Assembly: GCA_963663895.2 (NCBI GenBank) | Contig: CAXXRD010000001.1 | Coordinates: 224,001-288,000 of the forward strand | Length of the DNA: 64,000 nt | Source: Dehalococcoidia bacterium | GTDB taxonomy: Bacteria; Chloroflexota; Dehalococcoidia; Bin125 | Reading direction: 5' to 3' | Part shown: piece by piece, positions 87-21,471 of the stretch | How positions within the stretch are numbered: position 1 is the first letter of the stretch | Layout of the letters: each line of letters opens with the position of its first letter | The notes under the pieces: model-generated | What the model was told of the DNA's origin: nothing | The model's input: only the letters and a program-made list of their open reading frames with translations | Databases searched by the model: none | Position numbers and translations under genes: made by a program

Positions 87-959
87 ATGAGAAAGCGGCC
101 GATCTGGCAGATCGCGCACGCCCGGAGCAACTCCGCGGCGATCGCCGCTTGCGCTGCGGCCAGCCTCGTCGCCGCTGCCTGCGGCGGCGGCAGCGGCGAC
201 GGCACGGACCATCTCGCCGCCCCCTGCACGCCTCCAGCGCTCGCTTCCGATCCCGACGCGCTGCCGATCGTCGACAGCAAGCATCGCGAAACAAGCAACG
301 GCGAAACCAGCTTCACGATCACCGTCCTCACCGCCGACAGCGAAACGGTCACCTTCTTCACCAGCGCCGAGTGCTGGGAGCGTGCCACCCTCGGAGAAGC
401 CTCGCCCGACGCGGCCGCTGCCGTCGCACCCGCCCCACCGCCCGGCGATCCGACAGCGGCACCGATCCCCGCAAGCAGCGAGCCGAGCGGGCCCATCGAC
501 GATCACCCGGGGTTCGAAGACCTCAACGACCAGATCGAGGAACTCGGCAGCGAACACCTCGTCGCCGGTACGAGCTTTTTCTACCCCACCACGCCGCCCG
601 CCGGCGGGCCGCACTGGGAAATCCCCGCGCGCTGCGGCATCTACGCCGATCCGATCCCGTACGAAGCCCTGGTCCACACCATCGAGCACGGGGCGATCAT
701 CATGTACTACGACCCCGCAGCCTGGACGCCGACTGCCATTGCACAGTTCGAGGCGCTGGCCCGTGAAATCCTGAGTGACGGCGACCGCTTCGTGCTCGTT
801 CCCGCTCCGCCCAGCCCCCCGTTCCCTCGACCGATCGTCCTGGCGACATGGGGCTATCTGCTCTTCTTGGACGAGTTCGAACCCGACACCATTCGTGACT
901 TCGTGGACGAATTCGAGAACGAGGGGCCGGAAGTCCTCCCCCGCCTCAACGCCTGCTAG
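87..959 (+). CDS. DUF3105-domain lipoprotein
   Basis: Lipobox-like LVAAAC; motif PPAGGPHW...GIY...LVHTIEHGAIIMYY typical of DUF3105. Confidence 0.75.
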   Translation: MRKRPIWQIAHARSNSAAIAACAAASLVAAACGGGSGDGTDHLAAPCTPPALASDPDALPIVDSKHRETSNGETSFTITVLTADSETVTFFTSAECWERATLGEASPDAAAAVAPAPPPGDPTAAPIPASSEPSGPIDDHPGFEDLNDQIEELGSEHLVAGTSFFYPTTPPAGGPHWEIPARCGIYADPIPYEALVHTIEHGAIIMYYDPAAWTPTAIAQFEALAREILSDGDRFVLVPAPPSPPFPRPIVLATWGYLLFLDEFEPDTIRDFVDEFENEGPEVLPRLNAC

Positions 960-15605: not shown

Positions 15606-17726
15606 CTAGCCGCCGACCGTCTGGTCGATCGGCGAACTCACGAAGAGGATGTCGCCGGTGGCGATGCTGAAGTTCCCGCTCCGGCCCGGGATGTAGACCA
15701 CGTCCCAAACGCCGGTGTCCTGGTTGTACTTCCAGGCGCTGGTGACGGCGTCGCCGAAGAGGGCGGCTGCCGTCGTCTGCGGACCACTCGCCGTGACCGC
15801 GACGATGCGGCCGCCGGCCCGGAGGTCCAGCGAGATGACCGGCTCGGGCTCCGGCTCGGGCTCCGGCATCACGATGGTCACCCCGCCGGCGCTGGAGTAG
15901 GTCCAAGCGCTGGCGAGCCCATCGGCGACGAAGCGCGCGCGGACGTTGTAGTTGCCCGGGTCGCTCGGGGCCATCTCCGGCCACGCCATCCAGGCGCCGC
16001 TGTTGTGCTGCACCTGGATCTCCAGGGTCGCGCCCTCAGGCGCGTCCGGGGAGACGGCGACCGTGAGTGCGCCGTCCACGACGCTCAGGCTCACGTTGCT
16101 CGGCGCGGCAGGCGGTTCCGGTGCCTCCGAATCACCGATCTGCACCACGATCTCGTGCGTGACCTCGCTGTCGCCCACGGGCACCGAGACCAGGAAGACG
16201 GCCGCGCCGGGGGTGAGCGGGGCGCGGTAGGTGAACGACCGCTGGCCGTCCGCCGTGTCGCCTTTGTCCTCGCCCGCCGTCACCTTGCCGGATCCCTCGA
16301 TCTGGTCGAGCGTGGCGTCGACGACGCCCACGGGCACGCCCCGGTCGTCCAGGACGGTGTAGGTGATCGTGATCGAGCTCAGCGGGTCCACCGAGGCGGG
16401 CGCGTCGCTCGTGATGCTCGCCGGCGGGCCGCCGACGTTGATCGTGAGCGTCACCAGGTCCTCGACATTATCGAGGCTTCCCGCCTTGACCGTGATCATG
16501 TGCGCGCCGCGGGTGGCGTCGTCGCTCGCGTCGTTGGGCGTAGTGTCGCCCGGCGCGCTGACCTTGATCACGCACTTGCCGTCGGCGTTGGTGCCGGCTG
16601 TGAACTTGTCGTAGTCACTCACCGAAGTATCCCGCGGGTTAACCCCAGCCGGCTGGTTGCCGCACGCCGGCAGATCCTTATCCGCGTCGTCCGGGTCGAG
16701 CTGGAAGAAGTCCTTGTCGTTGTCGACGAGGACCTTGACCTGGAGCACGCCCACGGGCGTCTTCGGCGACGTGATGCCGCCGTTCGTCGCCGCGCTGTTG
16801 ACGTCGACCTGCTCGCCCGCCACCGGGTTGCCGCCGCTGTCGAGGATGGTGGCGACGAGGAAGGTGTCGCCGCCGATCTCGATCGCGGAGTTCTGGGCCG
16901 CGACGGTCATGCTGGCCGCGGCGCCGTAGATCGGGACTTTGACGGTCCGGGTGAGTGTCGAATTATCGAGTGTGAACGTCACCTGGGCTGTGCCCGGGGT
17001 ACCGTCGCCGTGCACGCTCACCGTGGCCCGGCCCGCTTCATTGACGCCTGTGGTGCCGGCGTCATCAACAGCGGTGTCAATCTCGCAGGAGCTCTTGCCA
17101 GCGTCGGTGGTGCCACTCGACGACCCGCAGCCGCCCTGGCCGTCCGTGTGAATGTCGCCGAGCGACGTCCGGACTTCCAGTGTTTGGCCGCTGAAGCCCG
17201 TGCCGTCCGCCTTCACGAGCCGCACGGTGATGACGGCGCCGGCGCTGCCGTTTTGCGGGACCGTCTTGGGAACCGGGCCGTTATTCAAGACCTGGATCGT
17301 CGTCGCCGGGTTCGCCGCTATGACCTCGACTGGGTGCTCGCCTACGACCGCGTCCGCGCCGGCGGCCCGGCCGACGGATTGGACGTAGAAGGTGCCCAGG
17401 GGCGAGTCCGCCGCGATCTGGACCCGCAGCGCGACGCCGCTGCTGGTGCCGTTCTCGTCGCACGCCGTGTTATCTGCACACGTGATCTCCGTGCCGTTGT
17501 TGCGGGTGAACGTCGCCTTGATCTTGGTGGCGGGGTCGATCTGATATTTTAGAGCGCCCGAATGGTCGAGCGTCACGACGGTCTGCCCGCCGGCCTCGAC
17601 GGTCCCCGGGTTCGCCTGCGCCAGGGCCGTGCCGGACGAGACCATCGCCCCGGCGACCAGCGCCAGCACCAGCGCGAGCAGGACCGCGACCCGTGCGGGG
17701 CGGGCTGCTCTCATTGCTTCAATCAT
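15606..17726 (-). CDS. Large secreted Ig-like surface protein (S-layer/adhesin-like)
   Basis: Signal peptide ending TALA, Thr/Val-rich Ig repeats, paired Cys, strong RBS AGGAAGGA. Confidence 0.8.
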   Translation of the reverse strand: MIEAMRAARPARVAVLLALVLALVAGAMVSSGTALAQANPGTVEAGGQTVVTLDHSGALKYQIDPATKIKATFTRNNGTEITCADNTACDENGTSSGVALRVQIAADSPLGTFYVQSVGRAAGADAVVGEHPVEVIAANPATTIQVLNNGPVPKTVPQNGSAGAVITVRLVKADGTGFSGQTLEVRTSLGDIHTDGQGGCGSSSGTTDAGKSSCEIDTAVDDAGTTGVNEAGRATVSVHGDGTPGTAQVTFTLDNSTLTRTVKVPIYGAAASMTVAAQNSAIEIGGDTFLVATILDSGGNPVAGEQVDVNSAATNGGITSPKTPVGVLQVKVLVDNDKDFFQLDPDDADKDLPACGNQPAGVNPRDTSVSDYDKFTAGTNADGKCVIKVSAPGDTTPNDASDDATRGAHMITVKAGSLDNVEDLVTLTINVGGPPASITSDAPASVDPLSSITITYTVLDDRGVPVGVVDATLDQIEGSGKVTAGEDKGDTADGQRSFTYRAPLTPGAAVFLVSVPVGDSEVTHEIVVQIGDSEAPEPPAAPSNVSLSVVDGALTVAVSPDAPEGATLEIQVQHNSGAWMAWPEMAPSDPGNYNVRARFVADGLASAWTYSSAGGVTIVMPEPEPEPEPVISLDLRAGGRIVAVTASGPQTTAAALFGDAVTSAWKYNQDTGVWDVVYIPGRSGNFSIATGDILFVSSPIDQTVGG

Positions 17727-18072
17727 TGCTGTTCCTTCCTATGCGGCCGGGCCGCGCATTTCCATATGCGGCCCCGCCGTCCTCTTCTGGGATCATTCCG
17801 GGTGAATGGTCGCTCGCCTACTCCCTTCTCCTTCTCACATCAAACGCCGGGCTCCCGCCCGGCTGCGCCAGGTGGAACTGCCCGCCAAGATACCGCCCCT
17901 GCCACGTATGCAGCAGCATTTTTACATCGCGTTGATAAAGGGGAACACCCAGCCGGGGCGGCCCGGCGCCGGCGATCGGTCCGCGCCCGGGCAGGGCCCG
18001 GCTGCTCCCGCGCCGGCAGCCCGGGGCCGCGCGCATTTTCGCACTCTCGACGCGAACGCCGCCGGCGTGCTG

Positions 18073-18390
18073 GCGCTGCATTGCCTGGACCTGGCTCGAG
18101 CGGGATGCTTGACGCGGGCGGCGGGCGGGCGGGAGACTGGCGGAGTGAGCCGGTCGGGTTGCTAGCCCGCAAGCGCTCCGGGGTTCGACACTGGCCTAGT
18201 GCCTTGCGGAGCGCGCCCGGCTCGCATCCATCCTATCCAAGTCCCTCGGGGATCCCTGCTCAAGCGGCGGGGATCGCTCCCAACCGCGTACGCTCTCTTT
18301 AACGATTGGCGCCCATCCCGCGCCGCCCTCCCCGGCCGCCGGCCGCCGCCAGCGCTGCAAACGGGAGCCCGCGCGGCCCGGCGACGCGGA
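18073..18390 (+). repeat. Dispersed non-coding repeat, copy 1 (promoter-like TTGACG-N18-GAGACT + hairpin + conserved tail)
   Basis: 5' part near-identical to 18391 onward (offset 318); 3' part near-identical to 19370-19525. Confidence 0.9.
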
Positions 18391-18577
18391 GCGCTGCATT
18401 GCCTGGACCTGGCTCGAGCGGGATGCTTGACGCGGGCTGCGGGCGGGAGAGAGACTGAGCGCACGACCGGAGCGACGCCGCGTTGGCCTAGTGCGTAGGG
18501 ACGGCGCCGCATCCGGCCGTGCTCCCGCATCCTAATCCAAGTTCTCCCTCGGGGACCCCTGCTCAAGCGACGGGGAT
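18391..18577 (+). repeat. Repeat copy 2 (tandem, 3'-truncated)
   Basis: GCGCTGCATTGCCTGGACCTGGCTCGAGCGGGATGCTTGACGCGGGC identical to copy 1. Confidence 0.9.
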
Positions 18578-18620
18578 TATAACCCTAACTTGACGTGACG
18601 CTTGGCATACTCTGGTCTCC

Positions 18621-18728
18621 CCCGCGCTGAGACCCGCAGTTCGATGCTGAGTGGAGCCATGCTCCCTTGTGGCTCGAACTGTGGAATGGTCTCAGCAATT
18701 ACTCCGCTCACGCGGCAAGGGAGCACCT
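18621..18728 (+). ncRNA. Candidate structured 5' leader with loop-to-RBS pairing
   Basis: Nested stems 18626-34/18688-96, 18635-42/18676-83, 18654-59/18670-75; loop 18660-69 is the exact complement of 18716-25. Confidence 0.6.
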
Positions 18729-18947
18729 ATGGCCGAGCCGACAGAACAGCAACCGTACCGGCGCGTGACCGTGCGCCAATCTGTCTTTGCGATCGCCGTC
18801 ATGGTGATCGTCGTGGTCGTGCTGATGGGAATCGCGTCGGCGGCCTTCGACTTGCGAAGCGATCTGAGTCTGGTCGTGGTCGCGACCACCTTCACGGCCG
18901 GCGGCGTGTGGGCCCACGTTCTGCTCTCCACCTACGCGCGGCGGTAA
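18729..18947 (+). CDS. 72-aa two-TM small membrane protein
   Basis: AAGGGAG RBS, two hydrophobic helices, ARR C-terminus. Confidence 0.75.
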   Translation: MAEPTEQQPYRRVTVRQSVFAIAVMVIVVVVLMGIASAAFDLRSDLSLVVVATTFTAGGVWAHVLLSTYARR

Positions 18948-19014
18948 CCCTTGCGCGCCGGTGTAACATCCCCGGCACGTAACGCTATAATTGCTCCGCA
19001 AGGAGACCACCACG

Positions 19015-19282
19015 ATGACTACCACGCGCGAGACGCTGGAAGCGCACGATCTTGACCATTGAAGCTCTGGCGGCGGAGATGCGTGAGCAGTTCGAGTACG
19101 TCCGATCAGAGTTCGATATCGTCGGCCAACATCTCCGCCGTCTCAACACCAAGATCGACGACACGGAGCACCGGTTGACCGCCAAGATCGACGACACGGA
19201 GCACCGGTTGACCGCCAAGATCGATGATGCGCTGGCGACCATTCAGATGGAGATCAGCGCACTAAGTAGCCAGTTGGACTAA
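19015..19282 (+). CDS. Small coiled-coil protein with 11-residue repeats; apparent +1 frameshift near 19040
   Basis: TATAAT at 18986, AAGGAG RBS, ATG 19015 is out of frame by 1 with ORF 19052-19282; 33-bp tandem repeat KIDDTEHRLTA. Confidence 0.6.
19149..19225 (+). repeat. 33-bp coding tandem repeat (about 2.3 copies)
   Basis: CCAAGATCGACGACACGGAGCACCGGTTGACCG at 19149 and 19182, partial at 19215. Confidence 0.9.
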
Positions 19283-19309
19283 GTTCACCGGAGGCGACCG
19301 ATGTCCGAT

Positions 19310-19525
19310 CCGGAGCAGCCAGCACCGAGCCCTAACAAAGTCCAAGGCGACGCTCGGCCGTGCTCCCTCATCCTCTCCAAGTTCTCCTGCGGGGACCCCT
19401 GCTCAAGCGACGGGGACCGCTCCCAAACCGCGTACGCTCTTTAACGATTGGCGCCCATCCCGCGCCGCCCTCCCCGGCCGCCGGCCGCCGCCAGCGCTGC
19501 AAACGGGCGCCCGCGCGGCCCGGCC
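19310..19525 (+). repeat. Repeat copy 3 (divergent hairpin + conserved tail)
   Basis: CGGCCGTGCTCCC...GGGGACCCCTGCTCAAGCGACGGGGA...AACGATTGGCGCCCATCCCG matches copies 1 and 2. Confidence 0.85.
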
Positions 19526-19825
19526 GCACGACCTGCGCCGCCTGGATGGCAAAGCCCGCTTGACATCCCCCGGCGCCGCTGCGATCGTCCCGGCGCGGTG
19601 GCGCGGCTTCTCTCTCAATGCGGGCGCCGCCCGTCCCCTCGCCGGCTCCGGGCTGGGGCGTACGAGGGGGCCGATCCGCACGCTCCACTTGTGGGCGCGC
19701 CCCCCGCTTGACCGCTTGCGCGTTCCGCGGCGGGAGGGGGGCGCGTCGGGGCGTCCCCGCCGCCGCCACGCGGGCCGCGCAGGTGCTACGCTGCGAGCGG
19801 AGCCGCGACGGGAGGCACGGGAGCG

Positions 19826-20008
19826 ATGGCGGAGCCGCACGATTACGCGACGCAGGCCGATCTGGACGCGCTGCGCGCGGAGGTGGCGCGGATCGCGGCG
19901 GAGGTGCGGGCGGCGATCGCCGAGGCGCATGGGGATACGAAGGCGCAGATCGATGTCGCCATTCTGAGCCTGAGCGAGCTCATCGGGATGCCCGGCGACT
20001 CGGACTGA
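19826..20008 (+). CDS. Small helical hypothetical protein
   Basis: GGGAG RBS; YATQADLDALRAEV resembles the ATKxDL motif of DUF1640-like proteins. Confidence 0.65.
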   Translation: MAEPHDYATQADLDALRAEVARIAAEVRAAIAEAHGDTKAQIDVAILSLSELIGMPGDSD

Positions 20009-20095
20009 CCGGGCGGGCGGGGGATGCGGCTCCGGGACCGGGAGCTGGCGGCCTAGTAGTTCGGCGAGGGGCGCTGGAACGCGGTCAGCACATCA

Positions 20096-20374
20096 TCACT
20101 TGGCAGCCCGGATCTCCTCCTTGACCTGGGCGACCCCTTCATCCTTCGCTTCCTCGATCTGCACCTCCACCGCGCCAAGTTTCTCGGAGATCTCGATCCG
20201 CAATGCTCGGATGTCCCCGCGGAGCTCCTGGCGCAATGTCTCGATCGAGGCTTCCTGCTGCTCCACGACGGACAGCACGCGAAGAAGGTTGTTGGACAGC
20301 ACGTCAACGAAGGCCGTCTTGTAGGCCTCGATCGCACGATCAAGCTCTTCGCGTGTTACGTACTCTTGCGCCAT
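20096..20374 (-). CDS. Small coiled-coil hypothetical protein
   Basis: MAQEYVTREEL...; GAGGG RBS; upstream TTGACA-N16-GACAAT. Confidence 0.7.
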   Translation of the reverse strand: MAQEYVTREELDRAIEAYKTAFVDVLSNNLLRVLSVVEQQEASIETLRQELRGDIRALRIEISEKLGAVEVQIEEAKDEGVAQVKEEIRAAK

Positions 20375-20571
20375 CTGTGCCACCCTCGCTCTTAGGCATT
20401 GTCGCCTGTCAAGTATCGCTGTCAAGTATCTGGATACGCGGTGGCGGCCTCCCGGCGCGCCGTCGCTGGGGGATGCGTTTCCGCTACGCTGCGCGCACGA
20501 CCGAGGCGGCGATGCTGCCGCGCGCGACCCGCGTAAAGCGGCCGGAACGATCGTAGGGAGAAAGGAGAAAT

Positions 20572-20760
20572 AGAGCGTACGCGGTTGGGAACGGTCCCGC
20601 GGCGCTTCGTAGGGGTCCCCGAGGCAGAGCTTAGATAGAATGAGGGAGCACGGCCGGATGCGGCGGTCCCTCAGTTGGCCAACTAGCCGCCGCTCCGGTC
20701 GTGCTCTCAGTCTCCCGCCTGGGCCGTGCGCGCGTCAAGCCAGCGCTCGCGCTACGTCCT
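20572..20760 (-). repeat. Repeat copy 4 (inverted)
   Basis: Reverse complement gives GCTTGACG-N18-GAGACT, GCACGACCGGAGCG...CATCCGGCCGTGCTCCC...CCCAACCGCGTACGCTCT. Confidence 0.85.
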
Positions 20761-21189: not shown

Positions 21190-21471
21190 CTAAGTCAACT
21201 CTCGCACGAGGACGGAAAGCTTTTCTTCGATCGCAGCGAGCCGCTCCTCGACGCCGCTGAGCCGCCCTTCGACGCCGCTGAGCCGCTCCTCGACGCCGCT
21301 GAGCCGCCCTTCGACGCCGCTGAGCCGCCCTTCGACGCCGCTAAGCCGCTCCTCAAAGCCGTCGAACTGCTTTTGGAGACTTTCGATTCGACCTTCCACG
21401 CGACGAATCTCGCCCATCACCGTCGCGAAGGATTCCGTGACTTGTTCTTCGAAGGTCGTCGTGGCGGACAT
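21190..21471 (-). CDS. Small coiled-coil protein with heptad tandem repeats
   Basis: E(E/G)RLSGV x5, encoded by a 21-bp repeat at about 21238-21352. Confidence 0.8.
   Translation of the reverse strand: MSATTTFEEQVTESFATVMGEIRRVEGRIESLQKQFDGFEERLSGVEGRLSGVEGRLSGVEERLSGVEGRLSGVEERLAAIEEKLSVLVRELT

Follow-up and report, generated by a model that had tools for sequence, protein, structure and literature searches.

We analysed a 64,000-nucleotide (nt) stretch of the genome of a Dehalococcoidia bacterium (contig CAXXRD010000001.1, positions 224,001 to 288,000), hereafter the window, with a focus on positions 18619-18728, immediately upstream of an open reading frame (ORF) for a small hydrophobic protein of 72 amino acids (aa). 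In our judgement this segment is probably the entire 5′ leader of the 72-aa gene and belongs to a family of cis-acting leaders in Chloroflexota that would act as a translational lock by burying the Shine-Dalgarno (SD) sequence. Covariance-model searches recovered 39 copies in 25 Chloroflexota genomes, of which 32 were aligned (alignment A9), and between these copies the stem sequences diverge widely while the pairing is retained.

Layout and folding of the leader

All sequence strings named in a preliminary description of this locus, covering its stems, the complement between loop and SD and a second pairing between loop and tail, were verified by direct reading of the window sequence. The outer stem GCTGAGACC/GGTCTCAGC (18626-34/18688-96) corresponds to helix P1, whose 5′ strand GCUGAGACC (18626-18634) pairs with its 3′ strand GGUCUCAGC (18688-18696), and the second stem CGCAGTTC/GAACTGTG (18635-42/18676-83) lies in helix P2, formed by the 5′ strand CGCAGUUCG (18635-18643) and the 3′ strand at 18675-18683. 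The two helices are separated on the 3′ side by a 4-nt bulge, GAAU (18684-18687), which reads GAAY in the closest copies and is variable elsewhere, and together they make a hairpin spanning 18626-18696. Its apical loop carries segment A (UGAGUGGAG, 18648-18656) on the 5′ side, a CAU linker (18658-18660; consensus C-A-Y, among the few conserved unpaired nucleotides by eye in A9) and, on the 3′ side, segment B (GCUCCCUUGUGGC, 18661-18673), a mimic of the anti-SD sequence. The tail past the hairpin carries segment A′ (CUCCGCUCA, 18702-18710), a single base (C18711) and segment B′ (GCGGCAAGGGAGC, 18712-18724), which holds the SD sequence AAGGGAG (18717-23); the ATG of the 72-aa ORF follows at 18729.

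Segment A pairs with A′ through nine base pairs, including one G-U (TGAGTGGAG, 18648-56, with CTCCGCTCA, 18702-10), and B pairs with B′. The preliminary description had given the latter helix as a 10-nt loop, TGCTCCCTTG (18660-69), complementary to CAAGGGAGCA (18716-25); that complement is exact, and comparison with the 31 other aligned copies extended the helix to 13 positions, 18661-73 pairing with 18712-24, of which one is mismatched (G.G) in the window copy. As the segments follow one another in the order A, B, A′, B′, the two loop-tail helices cross each other and P1/P2, and the loop is almost wholly paired with the tail. Segment A itself resembles an SD sequence (GGAGC or GGGGC), and its GGAGC has an alternative local partner in the GCUCC of B. 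The GAGCCA/TGGCTC stem described earlier (18654-59/18670-75) is present in the window, overlaps both pseudoknot helices and is kept, by eye, in about half of the closest copies. A further proposed CCGC/GCGG closure of the base did not hold up, being missing in all three other copies inspected by eye, and the GCGG of the window leader is part of the loop-SD helix.

The earlier statement that so many helices are unlikely to arise by chance was borne out by RNAfold, which gave -64.2 kcal/mol for 18612-18740 against -44.6 ± 3.9 kcal/mol for 200 dinucleotide shuffles (z = -5.1), with no shuffle as good. Folding without pseudoknots gave one long hairpin in which A is paired with the 5′ half of B and the tip loop ends in CAY. 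At the DNA level the leader has a single match in the window and likewise a single one in the whole 2.37-Mb genome.

Related copies and covariation

When 41 related genomes were searched at the DNA level, three other genomes matched in the leader and not in the ORF, and stem base pairs were swapped between the first copies aligned. The covariance models contain P1 and P2 only and were built from 5 (R1), 10 (R2) and 32 copies (R3). Loci L020 and L036 were left out as duplicates of L012 and L034, L032 was retained despite a poor loop-SD pairing (-15 to -17 kcal/mol), and L018, whose loop the aligner had placed in an insertion, was omitted from three loop-based energy tests and its cells were treated as gaps in the pairing count. 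Candidate L023 was dropped for want of a C-rich loop, and L012:365-465 (the same as L020:1225-1325) and L015:2726-2786 were dropped as weak and without the pairing.

Across the 32 copies, 93.0% of the 948 cells of P1, P2 and the loop-SD helix pair, compared with 69.4 ± 1.0% with shuffled partners (0/500 as high), and sliding the partners by one to three columns reduced pairing to 34-46%. Compensatory changes, with both sides altered, were found in 26 of 31 pairs. The P1 columns pair in 99-100% of cells with compensatory changes in 7/7 pairs, and 89.8% of P2 cells pair with compensatory changes in 9/9. For B:B′, which lies outside the search model, 95.6% of cells pair and 7 of 11 pairs show compensatory changes; variants with both sides changed include GCUCCCUUG/CAAGGGAGC, GCCCCCUUG/CAAGGGGGC, GCCUCCUUG/CAAGGAGGC, GUCCCCUUG/CAAGGGGAC and GCUCCCUCAC/GUGAGGGAGC, and the helix spans 13 positions in most copies (range 11-13 base pairs, bp). 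The mean duplex energy of B with its own partner was -25.8 kcal/mol, compared with -21.5 kcal/mol for swapped partners (0/10000 permutations as low). A:A′, likewise outside the model, reached -15.5 kcal/mol with its own partner versus -10.5 kcal/mol when swapped (0/10000), and forms at least 7 bp in 32/32 copies though its sequence differs in almost every one; in 31 of 32 copies no more than 2 nt separate A′ from B′. The covariation of both loop-tail helices sustains the earlier description of a pseudoknot-like leader able to occlude the ribosome-binding site (RBS). The local tip helix A:B gave a modest signal (own -9.7 versus swapped -8.7 kcal/mol; 4/10000 permutations), and a local A′:B′ hairpin predicted by RNAalifold on five copies was rejected, as it showed no covariation signal (5815/10000).

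G-U and U-G pairs outnumber A-C and C-A combinations in the helices by 99 to 8, which indicates that the structure is an RNA of the plus strand. The hairpin varies from about 18 to 28 bp among copies. By eye in A9, the unpaired bases that stand out as conserved are only the CAY before B and a GCA after P1, and the remaining conservation is explained by complementarity to the SD.

The window's own genome holds a second copy (G000:C1:683964-684088, minus strand; locus L019 1501-1625). Copies were found in 4/12 and 8/28 genomes of two further families of the class, in 6 of 151 genomes of a class-wide sample, and in 8 of 151 genomes of a phylum-wide sample, seven of these eight coming from three families of the same phylum; none of the seven genomes of a small-genome family in that sample (f47) gave a model match. 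A scan of 185,579 species genomes for the exact pattern returned 12 stretches, six of them confirmed by R2 and all six labelled Dehalococcoidia or Chloroflexota metagenome-assembled genome. The other six (two from Nocardiopsis and one each from Gordonia, Thermodesulfobacteriota, Bdellovibrionota and Bacteroidales) scored about 25 bits at most or had no R2 score and were taken as chance; the two Nocardiopsis stretches (L035 2134-2247 and L039 10-116), with model scores of 19.6 and 25.1 bits, do fit the exact pattern running from loop to SD. The same pattern in JGI metagenomes also gave 12 stretches, none above 21.3 bits with R2 and none convincing. At locus L012, two leader copies stand in tandem about 860 nt apart (1501-1605 and 641-762, minus strand), each with its own gene, and in the first of them an ATC, not a canonical start codon, follows directly past the SD spacer. 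Genes for tRNA (L022 1058-1145, L060 2520-2591 and L064 2150-2222) lie within approximately 0.4-1 kb of three leader copies, a hint that these copies may sit in island-like variable regions.

Promoter-like sites and downstream genes

In 20 of the 32 copies the motif is preceded, at a distance of 2-12 nt, by the end of a TAnnnT hexamer, compared with 5% of 5000 positions drawn at random from those loci; nine of these 20 copies have a -35 element matching at least 4/6 positions, and three have a perfect TTGACA. The preliminary description had placed an extended -10-like site at TGGCATACT (18603-11). In the window the site is better read as the overlapping hexamer TACTCT (18608-18613), a form also found in other copies, from the position of which a transcription start at about 18619-21 on the plus strand is predicted. 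With such a hexamer lying just upstream, the motif probably makes up the whole 5′ untranslated region. A search of sequencing runs for the region listed three that contain it, from one study, and no RNA run.

On the other side of the motif, 23 of 30 assessable copies have the start of an ORF of 60 aa or longer 0-5 nt past the motif's end. In 26 of 30 copies the next ORF opens with a hydrophobic signal or membrane segment, the criterion being that a 15-aa stretch among its first 50 residues reaches a Kyte-Doolittle value of at least 1.8-2.0, compared with 17-20% of 1089 composition-filtered background ORFs of the window's own genome; several of the downstream ORFs are homologous to one another, so that a binomial figure for this comparison overstates it. 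A Pfam scan of 16 downstream ORFs identified trypsin-like peptidase domains in two and DUF2511 in one, with nothing else above threshold and a second DUF2511 match below it. The proteins encoded downstream thus far comprise trypsin-like peptidases, DUF2511 proteins, lipoproteins, unknown membrane proteins and a helicase, the peptidases, DUF2511 proteins and lipoproteins being 130-500 aa long, and ORFs larger than 72 aa (82 to at least 499 aa) follow 28 of the 30 assessable copies. No ribosomal-protein family was present among the 16 ORFs scanned with Pfam, and the other ORFs, on reading, were unlike one; nor did the downstream genes examined share a metabolic pathway or transporter class. Behind the second copy in the window's own genome, a 22-aa ORF is followed, 3 nt past its stop, by the ATG of a UvrD/REP-helicase gene, which suggests control via a coupled upstream ORF and is an exception to the association with exported proteins.

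The 72-aa ORF of the window (P0001; 18729-18947, plus strand) contains one strong and one weak hydrophobic segment and is coding-like in composition, with GC fractions of 0.66/0.45/0.84 at codon positions 1/2/3. It has no Pfam family and, beyond weak hydrophobic matches, no homologues in the 65 genomes of its own family; a search of 5.8 billion proteins in the length range 39-126 aa found none either. Members of the genus have the leader in common and not the ORF. A test for covariation had originally been proposed on leaders of homologues of the 72-aa protein; the copies of the leader do covary, and it is the homologues of the protein that the searches did not find.

The surroundings of the gene are rich in other features. 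Local direct and inverted repeats fill the intergenic space around several small ORFs at 18073-20759, including an 88-nt pair (18295-18382/19437-19524, 99% identity) and a 67-nt pair (18073-18139/18391-18457), and BLAST against the whole genome confined these repeats to this 2.7-kb stretch. Directly past the 72-aa ORF lies a good sigma-70-like promoter, GTAACA-17-TATAAT (18963-18991), followed by an SD, a 14-aa ORF (ATG at 19016) and, in a different reading frame, a coiled-coil ORF of 76 aa with three 33-nt tandem repeats (19138-19236); the two ORFs in this region (18963-19282) may be one frameshifted or recoded gene. A 93-aa coiled-coil ORF on the minus strand (21190-21471) contains at least six 21-nt tandem repeats (21207-21374) and has a weak, sub-threshold match to DUF7310, and two more small coiled-coil ORFs lie nearby at 19826-20008 (plus) and 20096-20425 (minus). 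Just upstream of the leader and divergent from it is a 706-aa ORF (15606-17726, minus strand) that matches no Pfam family and has a signal-like segment at its N terminus.

Proposed mechanism, alternatives and known systems

We infer that the fold represses translation and that two folds alternate, as follows. The long P1-P2 hairpin, sometimes extended, starts no more than a few bases from the predicted 5′ end of the transcript and presents at its tip both an SD mimic (A) and an anti-SD mimic (B, GCYCCCUUGYGGC), and the single-stranded tail past the hairpin presents A′ and, directly after it, B′ with the real SD. In the nested fold, A would pair with B at the tip, leaving the SD tail free and translation possible. 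In the double-pseudoknot fold, the tail would invade the tip and form A:A′ (9-13 bp) together with B:B′ (13 bp), which would bury the SD, some 5 nt ahead of the start codon, and block translation. By nearest-neighbour sums the locked fold is the ground state: the double-pseudoknot state lies below the nested hairpin (mean -45 kcal/mol) in 31/31 copies, by a mean of 20 kcal/mol. Pairing of the SD with the 3′ tail of the genome's own 16S rRNA (GGAUCACCUCCUUUCU) amounts to -8.5 kcal/mol, versus -19 to -26 kcal/mol for B:B′, according to which bases are included. Translation would then be limited to a brief interval after transcription, before the tail has invaded, or would require an opening factor; we would propose that either kinetics during transcription or unwinding by such a factor shifts the balance between the folds. 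It is possible, although we put this forward only tentatively, that the leader is a regulated, self-invading double-pseudoknot SD lock across several classes of largely uncultured Chloroflexota, in which the tail of the mRNA opens the tip of its own 5′ hairpin and translation of exported or surface proteins hangs on a short co-transcriptional interval or an opening factor such as a helicase, an RNA-binding protein or an envelope or secretion signal.

Several points weigh against the lock. Under strict filters, copies occur in only 5 of the 65 genomes of the window's own family, which makes up its whole order, and the distribution by genus is patchy: 3/3 in its own genus, 1/1 and 1/7 in two others, and 0/37 and 0/9 in the two largest. 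Four of the 30 downstream ORFs are not exported by the criterion used, among them the UvrD helicase and a zinc-ribbon-like protein, and in at least 5 of the 32 aligned copies only a short ORF stands right after the SD, with a larger one 60-220 nt further on. The P1 and P2 columns, with their 99-100% and 89.8% pairing, were fitted by the covariance model and lean towards it; related copies are not independent, so that the permutation counts, including the 0/10000 for A:A′ and B:B′, overstate significance; and the energy sums behind the mean difference of 20 kcal/mol ignore pseudoknot and steric penalties. A:A′ and B:B′ might also alternate instead of coexisting, as a closed loop would have to wind around its own tail for approximately two helical turns with P1-P2 still intact, although a compact bundle or junction-like arrangement of the double pseudoknot seems possible from reasoning on its geometry.

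The preliminary description had offered a translational riboswitch-like element, and this term holds loosely for a structured leader exerting translational control. In its strict sense, a small molecule would bind the pseudoknotted or the nested fold and set access to the SD. In favour of this are a conserved, covarying pseudoknot that includes the SD, like those of H-type and HLout translational riboswitches, the two alternative pairings of B and the conservation of a few unpaired bases (CAY before B and GCA after P1). The SD helices of known translational riboswitches measure 4-7 bp. In the leader, by contrast, conservation sits almost entirely in Watson-Crick helices of 13 and 9-13 bp, hairpin length ranges over some 10 bp, no Rfam family matches, the downstream genes encode unrelated exported proteins with no common pathway or transporter, and no ligand is indicated. 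Given the long helices, the few conserved unpaired bases, the variable hairpin and the absence of a metabolic gene theme, a metabolite riboswitch is unlikely. We likewise find it improbable that the element is a 5′-terminal structure that stabilises or protects long-lived mRNAs of abundant surface proteins, with SD pairing as a side effect overcome by ribosomes. Such a role would suit the start of P1 about 2-12 nt from the predicted transcript end, the exported or surface proteins encoded and the great stability of the nested hairpin, but it leaves unexplained the exact complementarity of the loop to the SD, its covariation with the SD and the covariation of A:A′, and a 13-bp helix of about -23 to -26 kcal/mol would be hard to open for a 30S subunit whose own SD pairing is worth -8.5 kcal/mol.

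The other suggestion of the preliminary description, the leader of a type I toxin mRNA that stays untranslatable until it is processed or released from an antisense RNA, appears very unlikely. Type I toxin mRNAs typically have their SD sequestered by an anti-SD lying upstream, and the ORF of the window is small, hydrophobic and an orphan. Pseudoknots in toxin translation are the subject of a commentary (PMC11295053). The same leader, however, precedes ordinary exported proteins and once a UvrD helicase, the ORFs above 72 aa that follow 28 of 30 assessable copies include trypsin-like peptidases, DUF2511 proteins and lipoproteins, and even in the genus that conserves the leader, conservation does not extend to the ORF. 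A promoter scan of 18000-19600 listed no minus-strand promoter-like site, which is weak evidence; no antisense RNA was seen, and no search was aimed at one. That the element is only a DNA-level repeat (REP, MITE or attC-like palindrome), or an accidental palindrome without function as RNA, is scarcely credible: an imperfect inverted repeat does lie here between genes, with other local repeats in the surrounding 2.7 kb, and against it stand the excess of G-U over A-C in the helices, the fixed orientation and spacing relative to start codons and -10-like sites, copies that have a common structure and differing sequences with a single DNA-level match in the own genome, and pseudoknot partners that covary. 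An RNA thermometer of the ROSE or fourU type is unlikely, since a short, imperfect, meltable helix would be expected and B:B′, at 11-13 bp and a mean of -25.8 kcal/mol, is too stable, and CsrA was rejected as a general partner, its domain (PF02599) occurring in 6/65 genomes of the family and not being found in four genomes (G000, G001, G002 and G023) that carry 16 copies.

How genes are regulated in Dehalococcoidia and their Chloroflexota relatives is little known, and most of these bacteria are available only as metagenome-assembled genomes. The leader adds a well-supported structured RNA family to this group, with 39 copies and compensatory changes in four helices. Its architecture is unusual, in that a hairpin loop is paired nearly throughout with the adjoining tail by two crossing helices, and so is its association with genes for proteins that open with a signal peptide or membrane anchor. 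If the SD lock is regulated, it would define a post-transcriptional regulon of the cell surface and provide a translational off-switch that is both compact and portable. A constitutive lock would still be a clear natural anti-SD/anti-anti-SD design that can be tested in vitro.

An Rfam comparison, recommended in the preliminary description, was run and gave no family match: against Rfam 15 (4227 models), permissive scans of 4 kb and of 171 nt of the window returned only spurious microRNA-hairpin matches (best 19.8 bits, gathering score 70), and scans of 20 other loci at gathering scores returned tRNAs only. A full-text literature search found no description of the leader motif. Chloroflexi-1 (RF01698) is a different motif, whose listing names the single species Chloroflexus aggregans, and no Chloroflexi term was found in PMC8632094. 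The nearest published candidate by taxon is the rdhA motif of Dehalococcoides (Narunsky et al. 2024, PMC11109978), a candidate cis-regulatory RNA that, like the leader, belongs to this phylum and stands immediately upstream of genes of an exported-enzyme class. It is tied to reductive dehalogenase genes, none of which occurs among the scanned ORFs downstream of the leader; the contrast is one of gene association, and further weak candidates in the same source might bear on novelty.

Other known leaders resemble the present one in single respects. The stabiliser hairpins of ompA and aprE are stable, lie close to the 5′ terminus of mRNAs that encode secreted or surface proteins and leave the SD accessible, whereas the tip of the leader's hairpin would capture it. 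In the type I toxin leaders of hok, tisB, zorO and aapA1, as proposed for the window leader, an upstream anti-SD silences a small hydrophobic ORF and successive folds during transcription matter, but the leader family mostly precedes ordinary exported proteins and it is the leader, not the ORF, that is conserved. By analogy, the closest mechanistic parallels appear to be the pseudoknot riboswitches and the S15 and S4 pseudoknot leaders. SAM-II, preQ1-II/III and guanidine-III riboswitches also incorporate the SD into a loop-tail pseudoknot; the leader differs from them in apparently lacking a conserved ligand pocket, in an SD helix of 13 bp instead of a few, in a second covarying loop-tail helix (A:A′) and in the absence of metabolic genes. 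The Escherichia coli rpsO/S15 leader and the alpha-operon/S4 nested pseudoknot are autoregulatory leaders of ribosomal-protein operons, bound by the ribosomal protein they encode, in which a hairpin loop pairs with the downstream RBS, nested and pseudoknotted folds are in equilibrium and the pseudoknot blocks initiation, much as we propose here. They precede ribosomal-protein genes, whereas the window family precedes unrelated exported proteins and has much longer helices, and the S15 and alpha-operon families of Rfam gave no match to the window leader. Collectively, what is new relative to known SD-sequestering leaders is the distinct double-pseudoknot architecture and its unusual association with exported proteins.
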